Virus genome (UHGV): UHGV-0044886
Length of the DNA: 27,363 nucleotides
Reading direction: 5' to 3' (one strand)
From: a virus
The notes under the pieces are model-generated. The model saw nothing but the letters and a program-made list of their open reading frames with translations. It had not been told where the DNA came from and did no database searches. This document shows, in pieces, positions 17,306 to 19,772 of the stretch (the stretch's first letter is position 1; every line of letters starts with the position of its first letter). Made by a program: the position numbers and the translations under genes.

Positions 17306-19565
17306 AAGAGCTGTGCTATGGATCTGTTTGCAGTGGAATTGAAGCCGCGAGTATTGCCTGGGAACCGTTGGGTATGCGTCCGGCGTGGTTTGCTGAAATC
17401 GAGCCTTTTCCATCTGCCGTTCTTGCGCACCGCTGGCCCCATGTCGCCAACCTTGGCGACATGACAAAACTTGCCAAAAAAGTCCTGGCTGGGGAAATCG
17501 AATCCCCTGATGTGCTCGTCGGGGGTACGCCTTGTCAGGCATTCAGTATCGCGGGCTTACGTGGTGGGCTTGATGATGAACGCGGCGCGCTAACTTTGAA
17601 GTATGTGGAGCTTGCAAATGCAATTGACGACAAACGGTCTGAGTCCTTCCTCAAACCGACAGTTATCGTCTGGGAAAATGTCCCAGGAGTCCTGTCATCG
17701 GCAGATAACGCCTTCGGATGTTTCCTTGCCGGATTGGCTGGAGAAGATGCGCCATTTGAACCAGGTGATCGACCTGAATCAGGAAAAAGTAACGCGTTCT
17801 GGCGGTGGGATGGCAAAACCGGTTGCCATGCTCCAAAGTGGCCGCAGTGTGGTTGTATTTATGGACCGCAGCGAAAGGTGGCCTGGAGAATCCTTGATGC
17901 CCAATACTTCGGAGTGGCACAACGACGCCGACGCGTGTTTGTTGTCGCAAGTGCTCGAACAGACCTCGATCCCGCAACGGTACTTTTTGAGTTCGAAGGC
18001 GTGCGCCGGAATATTGCGCCGAGCCGAAAAAAGAAGGAAATCGCTTCCGCCATTATTGCAAATGGCGCTGCAATCAGTGGCGAAAGCCTAAATCCATGCC
18101 TACATGCTGACATGCCACCCGGTATGAAATCGACGAAAGCCGTAAACGCTTTCAGGATGGCAGCATTTGGGGAATATATTGACGATGAAACCGCATCGAC
18201 AGTAAAGGCAAGAGATTTTAAAGATGCCACTGACCTTGCCGTTTTTAGCAGCACAGGAGCAGGTTTTTGGTCAGAAGGGCATGGTACATTGCGGGCACGA
18301 GAGCAAGAAAGCCATGAGCATCTTGTTACATTGGCTTTTCCTGAGCGTATGAGCGGTACACAACATGCTGCAACTAAGAATACTTCACCATCTCTAATGG
18401 CTAAAAATCCAACAGCTGTTTGCTATGAAGTAAGAAACGCAGAAGTAGCTGTCCGCCGTCTTACCCCTGTCGAATGTGAAAGGCTGCAAGGTTTTCCTGA
18501 TGGGCATACGTTGATCCCGACGGAAAAGCGTAAAAAAGTTAATTCAGATGAACTGGCATATCTTCGCAATCACTATCCAGATTTAAGCGAAGAAGAGGCC
18601 GCGATGCTTGCAGCTGACGGACCGCGTTACAAAGCGATCGGCAATAGTATGGCAATACCAGTAATGCGCTGGATTGGCGATCGGATTACTAAGGCCGTAT
18701 GTCGGCAGAAAGAAGGAAGTGAAACAAAAGAGCGAAAAGTTAAACCAGCGGCAGAATTCGAACGGTCCATATTCAAATGGGCTGGTGGAAAATTTGGTGT
18801 TCTGGAACAAATCTTTCGCTATTTGCCAGAAGGGAAGCGCCTGATCGAACCTTTTGTCGGTGGCGGAGCTGTCTTCACGAATGCCGGATACCAGGAAAAT
18901 CTGCTAAATGATGTGAATGCTGACCTGATTAACTTTTACAAGACTCTGCAACGCGAGGCGCATTCACTTATCACACTGGCGCATCGTTTCTTCCAGGACT
19001 ACAACACACAGGAAGGATACCTGGCAGTACGGAATGCGTTTAACAAACAAGTCTATGATGATTTACATCGCGCAGCGGCGTTTTTGTCCTGAACCGACAT
19101 TGTTTTAACGGATTGACGCGTTACAACCAGGCCGGTGAGTTCAATGTCGGTTACGGGAAGTATAAAACTCCGTATTTCCCATTACAGGAGATGGAAGCCT
19201 TCCTCGGTGCGGAAGGGCGGTCTGAGTTTGTATGCGGTGATTTTGCAGCGGTGATTGAAGCTGCCGGAGAAGGAGATGTCATCTTTTGCGATCCGCCGTA
19301 TGAACCGCTTCCAAATACAGAGGGATTCACGAACTATTCCGGTCATGACTTTAAGTTTGAAGAGCAAAAACGCCTGGTGTCTCTGTTGACGGATGCTCAT
19401 CGTCGAGGTGCAAAGGTTCTCATTACTAACAGTGGCGCGCCAAACATCAGAGAGCTTTATCATGACAGTGGCTTCAGAGTGGAACCTCTTTTTGCCAGAC
19501 GTTCTGTGTCTTGTAAGGGGGACACTCGAGGTGTAGCTCATGACGTTTTGGGTGTATTGCTCTAA
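17302..19565 (+). pseudogene. dmt: bifunctional DNA methyltransferase (N-terminal C5-cytosine MTase domain plus C-terminal Dam-like N6-adenine MTase domain), interrupted by a 1-nt frameshift near 19087
   Basis: GTG start 17302 overlaps the hrdC stop. C5-MTase motifs PCQ (GTPCQAFS), ENV (WENVPG), QRR. Dam-like motif I FKWAGGK...EPFVGGGAVF in frame 1; frame 1 stops at 19090-19092, and the Dam continuation (...LNRHCFNGLTRYNQAGEFNVGYGKYKTPYFP...DPPYEP...) resumes in frame 3, ending at TAA 19563-19565. Total span 2264 nt is one short of a multiple of 3. Confidence 0.75.
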
Positions 19566-19572
19566 TAAATAT
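19556..19572 (+). promoter_or_regulatory. C1-type operator (ATTGCTCTAATAAATAT) overlapping the dmt stop codon, with a sigma70-like promoter
   Basis: Operator seen directly; -35 TTGCTC (19557-19562), 17-nt spacer, -10 TAATAT (19580-19585). Confidence 0.55.
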
Positions 19573-19746
19573 ATTAGTGTAATATCGCCGCAATGAATCG
19601 TGATTTATAGAGCGATTTAGCTGTTAGCCGCGACAGGCGCGGCGGTAAGCATGGCTGGGCCTAGTCCTCCCAGACAAACCACCGAGTTGCCAGGTTGACC
19701 ATGCGCCTAAGTGGCAACGCCGAAGTGCGTTACGAGCTTCCAGTTT

Positions 19747-19772
19747 GCCCATCTTCGGGTGGGCGTTTTTTT
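19747..19772 (+). terminator. intrinsic terminator (GCCCATC-TTCG-GGTGGGC followed by GTTTTTTT)
   Basis: 7-bp stem, tetraloop and a 7-T run, ~165 nt downstream of the predicted transcription start. Confidence 0.55.

Follow-up and report, generated by a model that had tools for sequence, protein, structure and literature searches.

In the virus genome UHGV-0044886, an operator, a promoter and a strong terminator stand in close succession at the end of the dmt gene, ahead of tRNA genes and ban. What does this arrangement produce, and what might the product do? A preliminary description of the sequence read it as an immunity-regulated small RNA (sRNA) or as a leader/attenuator of the tRNA-ban operon. 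We analysed the whole stretch of 27,363 nucleotides (nt), hereafter the window, with positions numbered from its first base. The interval carries the features annotated at the corresponding position of phage P1, a covarying pseudoknotted RNA element with a homologue ahead of dicF in the Qin prophage, and an intrinsic terminator. We conclude with good confidence that the interval contains the sequences that control the P1 ban operon and the operon's 5′ leader, with a DicF-like leader RNA ending at the strong terminator. Beyond the terminator lies a second RNA, which resembles transfer-messenger RNA (tmRNA) in its tag frame and is treated separately below.

A repressor-controlled promoter in a P1-like phage-plasmid

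Over positions 19400–20412 the window aligns with P1 (NC_005856, 68511–69522) at 98.8% identity in one uninterrupted alignment, through which we placed the P1 annotation on window coordinates. The window also holds the C4 antisense RNA together with its targets. Its tRNA genes (Asn, Thr and a third with a CAT anticodon, labelled tRNA-Ile in P1) and a DnaB-like open reading frame (ORF) keep the order that they have in P1. Because of the P1 match, the C4 RNA, the tRNA genes and the DnaB-like ORF in P1 order, we identify the window, by sequence comparison, as part of a P1-like phage-plasmid. The order on one strand after the end of dmt, namely operator and promoter, tRNA-Asn, tRNA-Thr, tciABC, tRNA-Ile and ban, is that found at this position in P1. 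A near-identical copy of the region occurs in about 475 complete Escherichia coli genomes, mostly on plasmids. Among viral contigs, the operator, the promoter and the pseudoknotted element (element A, below) are retained together in about 40 that are P1-like. A megablast of window positions 19400–20500 likewise returned P1-like phages.

To locate binding sites of the repressor C1 we used the 17-bp asymmetric operator consensus, ATTGCTCTAATAAATTT, allowing up to three mismatches and taking the chance level from shuffles. The window contains five matches, where shuffles predict 0.11. The preliminary description had placed a fourth operator copy at 19556–19572, over the dmt stop codon and the -35 hexamer of a promoter, and the scan, the sequence and the P1 annotation all bear this out. 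The copy is Op72a, which overlaps both the dmt stop TAA (19563–19565) and the -35 of the promoter P1ban. It is indeed the fourth on the plus strand, the others lying at 470, 2140 and 16035, the last of which is Op68 and controls the dmt operon. A fifth, inverted copy at 19567–19583 had been overlooked. This is Op72b, which covers part of the P1ban spacer and the -10 and overlaps Op72a, so that the two form the bivalent operator Op72ab (Oban).

According to the P1 record, Obanab/Op72ab "controls expression of ban", and according to the P7 record the same operators control the tRNA genes as well as ban. The P1 record adds that Lxc, formerly Bof, boosts C1 binding at all operators. Control of P1ban by C1 (plus Lxc/Bof) and dependence of ban on Op72ab are thus taken from annotation and literature. 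They agree with the earlier proposals that the promoter is repressor-controlled, since the annotated operator lies over P1ban, and that read-through would couple tRNA and ban expression to derepression, since this matches the operator annotations of both phages.

The hexamers TTGCTC and TAATAT, separated by 17 nt and described earlier as a good promoter, are those of the annotated P1ban. "Good" overstates their quality, although this is the accepted promoter: they match the sigma-70 consensus at 3/6 and 4/6 positions, 7/12 in total, and for this reason P1ban is absent from the list returned by our sigma-70 consensus scan. That scan gave no other consensus promoter between the terminator and ban, a weak argument for read-through into the operon because it missed P1ban too.

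In sequence (98.8%), position, operator pair, promoter hexamers, the annotated "dicF-like region" and downstream genes, the locus is the same as Op72ab/P1ban of P1. It differs in a T-to-A change at 19571, in a U-tract of seven rather than six T residues, and in a 1-nt indel in dmt. The change at 19571, relative to both P1 and P7, falls inside the 6-bp overlap of Op72a and Op72b, which have one and three mismatches here against zero and two in P1/P7. It is also the last base of the -10 of P2ban, a second promoter predicted in P1. From its position, the change might make C1 a weaker repressor of the ban operon in this plasmid and give a bac-like phenotype. Judged from the alignment, the positions of operator, promoter and terminator agree to the base with annotated features of the P1 reference, and the site is the known Op72ab/P1ban/"dicF-like" region, which makes the finding one already known. 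Promoter, operator and both of the earlier readings are already contained in the 2004 P1 annotation. The P1 genome paper to which Op72ab and P1ban are linked is reportedly that of Lobocka et al. 2004.

The dmt gene that precedes the operator (17301–19565) aligns with its P1 counterpart at 99.7% over 2266 nt, the indel being the single gap. It is split here into ORFs 17302..19092 and 19113..19565, which lie in different frames; either the methyltransferase gene is frameshifted or the sequence contains an error.

The leader RNA and its likeness to DicF

A transcript from P1ban is predicted to begin near 19592 and to run to the end of the terminator, for a length of about 181 nt (Table 1). The terminator, which the preliminary description had put at about 19747–19772 and called strong, was confirmed: its stem (19746–19765, GCCCAUC/GGUGGGC) has five GC pairs and a folding energy of -12.8 kcal/mol, and it is followed by seven U residues at 19766–19772. 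It appears in both the minimum free energy (MFE) and the centroid structures of the leader. P1, P7 and D6-like relatives also keep it, and where its stem has changed on one side the pairing is preserved. Terminator-like sites as a class number three in 19000–22400, not above the shuffle mean of 3.7. This one is the first downstream of the dmt stop, and its role as the first terminator after the C1-controlled dmt operon had been overlooked in the preliminary description.

Upstream of the terminator lies element A, an H-type pseudoknot with an internal hairpin. Helix I pairs 19644–46 and 19649–54 with 19699–19707 (AAGCAUGG/CCAUGC(GCC)), the internal hairpin pairs 19655–59 with 19669–73, and helix II pairs 19686–92 with 19712–18 (GUUGCCA/UGGCAAC). 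In an alignment of 12 distinct versions, 97.5% of the cells in this model are paired and four pairs show compensatory changes; slid controls reach at most 55% paired. The interval had earlier been called GC-rich and self-complementary. The GC-richness is modest, at 55% in 19600–19799 against 45–50% upstream.

In a distant search, positions 19628–19722 showed 77–79% identity to a chromosomal segment present in 4268 of 5426 complete E. coli genomes. In K-12 this segment lies in the Qin prophage between ydfC and dicB, directly upstream of dicF. The P1 record carries a miscellaneous feature labelled "dicF-like region" at P1 68791–68892, which corresponds to window positions 19680–19781. DicF occurs in two forms that share the terminator as their 3′ end, one of 190 nt whose 5′ end RNase III generates and one of 53 nt generated by RNase E (PMC10448788). 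Element A is therefore part of the 190-nt form. Counted back from the Qin terminator, the 5′ end of that form falls in the 3′ strand of a long hairpin (z = -3.4).

The two loci share a common plan. In Qin, as in P1, a short RNA bounded by an intrinsic terminator comes after a conserved pseudoknotted element, within a repressor-controlled phage operon that runs on beyond it. The RNA lengths are nearly equal (about 181 nt in P1, 190 nt for the long form of DicF), and they differ in how the 5′ end arises, by a promoter in P1 and by an RNase III cut within the long hairpin in Qin. They also differ in the genes downstream, tRNAs and ban in the former and dicB in the latter. Because the P1 promoter stands where Qin has its long hairpin and the RNA length is nearly the same, the P1 RNA of about 181 nt is, by analogy, the positional counterpart of the 190-nt long DicF. 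To predict a short transcript that terminates after about 180 nt is likewise reasonable by analogy, because its position and its 5′ structured element correspond to those of the 190-nt DicF of Qin. Accumulation and processing of the short RNA, and a role in trans if it has one, are inferences only.

Is the P1 RNA itself DicF? A true orthologue would inhibit cell division through the ftsZ ribosome-binding site. The annotation label speaks for such a relationship, as does the architecture: the P1 segment lies directly 3′ of the structured element of the dicF locus, in the same position after element A, and also ends in an intrinsic terminator. The sequence and pairing data point the other way. 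The DicF family (RF00039) gave no match in 19500–20300, either at the Rfam gathering score or at E <= 10, and positions 19719–19772 are unrelated to DicF in sequence. In a crude RNAduplex calculation, the P1 RNA paired with ftsZ (-60 to +40) at -28.9 kcal/mol, a value equalled by 88% of shuffles. The 3′ part of DicF reached -27.9 kcal/mol, equalled by 4%. Balasubramanian et al. moreover report no DicF in phage genome databases (PMC5069750). We regard orthology as very improbable. Since Rfam gives no match and pairing with ftsZ does not exceed that of random sequences, the sRNA part of the P1 transcript is, on these comparisons, not a member of the DicF family. What P1 and the dicF locus have in common is the upstream pseudoknotted element and not DicF.

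After element A, 148 viral loci carry differing modules of sRNA plus terminator: DicF itself, several variants of it, a P1 type and one that is D6-like. Because the modules differ after an element A that is kept, the sRNA module behaves as an exchangeable cassette. Since element A is common to these loci and the module of sRNA and terminator is exchangeable, P1 probably makes a different, uncharacterised sRNA under immunity control.

We propose the following course of events. In the lysogen, C1, with Lxc, would occupy the bivalent Op72ab and cover both P1ban hexamers, preventing transcription. On derepression, polymerase would start near 19592 and transcribe in turn the 5′ hairpin, the pseudoknot, an open stretch of about 28 nt and the terminator. 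A fraction of the polymerases would stop there and yield the ~181-nt RNA. DicF depends on Hfq and is freed in a short form by RNase E, and by analogy an RNase E cut after the pseudoknot may free an sRNA of about 55 nt, with the terminator hairpin and U-tail at its end. The polymerases that pass the terminator would continue into the tmRNA-tag-like RNA, the processing hairpins, tRNA-Asn, tRNA-Thr, tciABC, tRNA-Ile and ban. The same terminator would also end transcripts of the upstream, C1-controlled dmt operon. Since it is the first terminator after that operon, the short RNA could also be cut from the dmt mRNA's 3′ end, as DicF is from its operon.

Several observations weigh against a DicF-like leader RNA of this kind. 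With a strong terminator 180 nt into the operon and the last gene 2.6 kb on, the scheme needs substantial read-through. The start site, the termination efficiency and the stability of the RNA are all inferred. In our model the fold of the whole leader (184 nt) has an energy of -64.8 kcal/mol and a z of -1.7, which is unremarkable as stability goes, and the covariation of element A rests on 12 closely related sequences, making it moderate evidence. To these must be added the failure to match DicF or to pair with ftsZ beyond chance, given above. The candidate seed (19719–19746) has three non-self complementary 10-mers in the window against about one expected, which is not above chance and gives no candidate target.

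These points lend some weight to a simpler view, in which the terminator mainly ends the uhr-hrdC-dmt operon and the short RNA is a by-product. The structured RNA would then stabilise or process the ban-operon precursor and have no trans-acting role. That the terminator is the first after the dmt stop, that no target was found in ftsZ or the window, and that long, processing-like hairpins separate the neighbouring modules, as would befit a precursor of several RNAs, are all in keeping with it. We nevertheless hold it to be rather unlikely, since element A is conserved with compensatory changes beside a proven sRNA, DicF, in Qin, and since the module following it is swapped between phages in cassette fashion with the terminator always kept, a pattern to be expected of exchangeable sRNAs and not of a spacer.

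A regulated attenuator, in which a ligand, a protein, a tRNA or translation toggles between terminator and antiterminator and so sets the expression of the tRNAs and ban, was the second of the earlier readings. A structured leader with a strong terminator before a long operon is its usual layout, and in the D6-like relative an upstream GUGGG could, by eye, pair with the 5′ arm of the terminator. The predicted fold of the leader in the window contains no alternative or competing helix, and we found no convincing competitor for the terminator stem; CCGAAG/CUUCGG would open its top pair only. No riboswitch or leader family of Rfam matched, either at the gathering score or in a permissive scan of 19500–20300. 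A leader peptide is no better supported. The plus strand, once described as having no ORF longer than 15 codons, does hold TTG- or GTG-started ORFs of 24–33 codons, which begin at 19695, 19711 and 19745 and cross the terminator; none is ATG-started. Element A, moreover, precedes DicF in Qin, where no attenuation is known. We consider attenuation improbable.

On the minus strand, an ORF of 110 aa (19624..19956) is present in the window, and the idea that it encodes a protein is hardly credible. It is broken in reference P1 by a 1-nt difference in a T-run and in P7 and the D6-like phage by frameshifts or stops, is annotated in neither P1 nor P7, and lies antisense to two RNA elements that are conserved by base-pairing and not by codons. 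It had been suspected of being spurious on its composition, rightly as these genomes indicate.

Further parallels to the preferred reading, a ban leader with an RNA ending at the terminator, come from other phages. The 6S RNA of lambda, made between pR′ and tR′, is a short terminated transcript that heads a phage operon, and the Q antiterminator gives read-through beyond it. In both pR′-6S-tR′ and StxS, as in P1, a strong terminator stands no more than about 200 nt after a phage promoter, so that the product is a short RNA and the genes downstream need read-through. StxS is an sRNA of Stx phages (PMC13502914). Lambdoid prophages even have the same tmRNA-tag-like RNA just after tR′. P1 differs in that no antiterminator is known or was found here, and in that P1ban is an early, repressor-controlled promoter. 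Taken as a whole, the earlier interpretation is supported for repressor control and read-through, is a reasonable prediction for a short transcript and falls short for the attenuator; it had also missed that the leader continues directly into the conserved RNA described next.

Table 1. Positions of the predicted and annotated features between the end of dmt and the first tRNA genes of the window.
Feature	Position	Strand	Remarks
Predicted second promoter P2ban	19540..19571	+	P1 annotation; -10 at 19566–71
C1 operator Op72a (Obana)	19556..19572	+	ATTGCTCTAATAAATAT, 1 mismatch to consensus; P1 annotation
Sigma-70 promoter P1ban	19557..19585	+	-35 TTGCTC 19557–62, 17-nt spacer, -10 TAATAT 19580–85; P1 annotation
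C1 operator Op72b (Obanb), inverted half	19567..19583	-	3 mismatches; annotated in P1 and P7
Predicted primary transcript, ~181 nt	19592..19772	+	Inferred start 7 nt past the -10, to the end of the U-tract
5′ hairpin	19594..19619	+	P1-like phages only; in MFE and centroid structures
Conserved pseudoknotted element A	19644..19718	+	Homologous to the sequence immediately upstream of dicF in Qin-type prophages
Single-stranded stretch, ~28 nt, candidate sRNA seed	19719..19745	+	Between element A and terminator
Intrinsic terminator	19746..19772	+	7–8 bp GC-rich stem, UUCG loop, U7
tmRNA-tag-like RNA	19775..19951	+	Begins 3 nt after the terminator; conserved 5′ domain, tag frame, stop-codon hairpin, two pseudoknots
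Long hairpin	19950..20038	+	CACAACAGGUAAG...CUUUCCUGUUG; z = -5.0; separates RNA modules
tRNA-Asn and tRNA-Thr	20238..20391	+	Downstream genes of the ban operon

A tmRNA-tag-like RNA beyond the terminator

In the permissive Rfam scan of 19500–20300 we obtained only chance microRNA matches and matches of two tmRNA models, directly after the terminator and below the gathering score. With RF04321 the scores were 24.1 bits in the window and 32.7 and 27.9 bits in two related loci (L007 and L006), against a gathering threshold of 47. The matches led to a frame at 19834–19866, GCAAACGATGATCTGATGATGGTAGCGGCCTAA, which runs from GCA at 19834 to TAA at 19864–66 and reads ANDDLMMVAA-stop. It has no ATG, GTG or TTG start, and an in-frame UAG occurs eight codons upstream.

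The frame is strongly conserved. In all 128 loci it consists of GCA, nine further codons and TAA or TAG. It is the only frame open in all 30 distinct variants, and variation falls mostly at third codon positions; codon 10, for example, varies among GCC, GCG and GCT. The surrounding RNA folds into a 5′ hairpin, a helix around the stop codon, a hairpin with a loop that pairs to downstream sequence, and a terminal hairpin. The pairing between loop and downstream sequence exists in the variants CCGA/UCGG, CCAG/CUGG, CCAA/UUGG and GUCG/CGAC, and an additional helix turns the last hairpin into a second pseudoknot. In this model 91.5% of cells are paired and 16 of 23 pairs show compensatory changes, a result that none of 500 shuffles reached. 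We are therefore highly confident that this is a real, conserved and structured RNA with a frame under coding-type constraint.

The likeness to tmRNA lies in several features: a frame without a start codon, alanine (GCA) as the first codon, a length of ten codons, a stop codon within a P5-like hairpin, and pseudoknots after it. Ten codons is the commonest length of tmRNA tags (PMC11915505). The tag pattern of the phage RNAs, AN[DE][DEN]..[LM].[AV]A, compares with ANDENYALAA in E. coli tmRNA, and GCAAACGA is common to the phage RNA and E. coli ssrA. When the phage family was compared with ssrA by nhmmer, the tag alone aligned, in register, at 5.8 bits.

The RNA differs from tmRNA in that we found no tRNA-like domain, that is, no acceptor stem with G3-U70, T-arm and CCA. 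ARAGORN detected no tmRNA in the window, in any of 128 related loci or elsewhere in P1. Rfam showed no tRNA-like domain in five diverse loci, and the other 66.8 kb of P1 had no Rfam match at all at E <= 1. In an N4-like phage (PD205; L007, 1311–1382) and a Vi01-like phage (L005, about 1300–1375), a tRNA-like sequence with the T-arm GGUUCGAAUCC lies 165–235 nt upstream of the tag-like RNA; ARAGORN calls it tRNA-Ala(CGC) and GenBank labels it "pseudo". As the missing domain we rejected it, since by eye it lacks G3-U70 and a hairpin module intervenes. A PK1-like helix (CUUUG/CAAAG) upstream of the resume codon was also discarded, having no support from covariation. For pairing in trans with host tmRNA, an RNAduplex of the tag-like RNA and E. 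coli ssrA across their whole lengths was uninformative, at -100 against -106 for shuffles. An invariant segment, GCGACUUUGCGG, is complementary to ssrA nt 74–92, from the 3′ strand of PK1 to the resume codon, and in a windowed search its pairing energy of -17.4 kcal/mol was not significant beside the -14.2 ± 1.9 of shuffles.

We found the RNA in 292 phage records, almost always in unannotated DNA; the phages, temperate as well as virulent, are those of Enterobacterales. Among them are P1-like phages; P22/lambda-like prophages, where the RNA follows tR′ and lies between Q and the holin gene; Ackermannviridae; N4-like Gamaleyavirus; and siphoviruses of Klebsiella, Salmonella and Escherichia from several genera. 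The motif occurs in just five species-representative bacterial genomes, and the RNA is therefore essentially phage-borne. Genes for tRNAs lie within 1.5 kb of it in 71 of the 128 loci, for the most part on its own strand and 300–600 nt downstream. Two siphoviruses have a consensus promoter about 15 nt before it. In the searchable literature, including papers on tmRNA databases, we found no description of the RNA, which is apparently undescribed.

We tentatively suggest, as a possibility we rate at somewhat less than even, that this previously undescribed RNA takes part in or targets trans-translation. It would form a new class of phage RNA, a relative of tmRNA that keeps the tag template, the stop-codon hairpin and the pseudoknots and has dispensed with the tRNA-like domain. 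During lytic growth it would template a phage degradation tag (ANDDLMMVAA) or interfere with trans-translation, and the alanyl-tRNA-like part would come in trans, for example from host tmRNA-SmpB.

Long hairpins, neighbouring sequences and implications

The end of the tag-like RNA meets a long imperfect hairpin of a type that recurs. Its members follow the form CACAACAGGUAAG(A/G)GC...GCUCUU(U/A)CCGUUGUG and occur in the window at 19950–20038 and 20390–20482, and in two related loci (L003, 2410–2496; L004, 4478–4560), with z values of -5.0, -7.7 and -3.4. In P1, lambdoid prophages and siphoviruses they flank the tag-like RNA, tRNAs and the DicF locus, and some enclose T-arm-like hairpins (GGGUUCGAAUCCC). 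The same type precedes element A in Qin, at the 5′ end that RNase III makes for the 190-nt DicF. By analogy with that end, the hairpin at 19950–20038 is likely a processing site of the RNase III type, and the long hairpins in general look like processing sites and cassette boundaries. The tentative reading of the tag-like RNA given above would make the leader of Pban the opening member of an "RNA cassette array" in the phage, with the terminator gating the tag-like RNA and the tRNAs until derepression reaches a high level.

Between the first long hairpin and tRNA-Asn, a stretch of about 190 nt (20046–20237, GC 53–56%) is non-coding; the distant search found nothing similar to it outside P1-like phages, and Rfam gave no match. 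The P1 gene plp, on the minus strand at 20361–20738, overlaps the 3′ end of tRNA-Thr and the entire conserved hairpin module at 20390–20482, and the reality of the plp start may be doubtful. Beyond 20412 the window diverges from reference P1. Elsewhere in the window, a strong match to the sok antitoxin RNA in Rfam (114 bits, 4067–4241) adjoins a plus-strand ORF of 68 aa (4178..4384); the two sit just after a repL-like ORF, and from its sequence the pair suggests a module of the hok/sok type.

The control region examined here is a rediscovered textbook element of P1. Beyond the existing annotation, our analysis gives a sharper definition of "dicF-like", a negative result for ftsZ and the neighbouring tag-like RNA. 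If that RNA acts in ribosome rescue or tagging, it would represent a previously unseen route by which phages manipulate the translation quality control of their hosts, and it might help to explain what travels with phage tRNA clusters.

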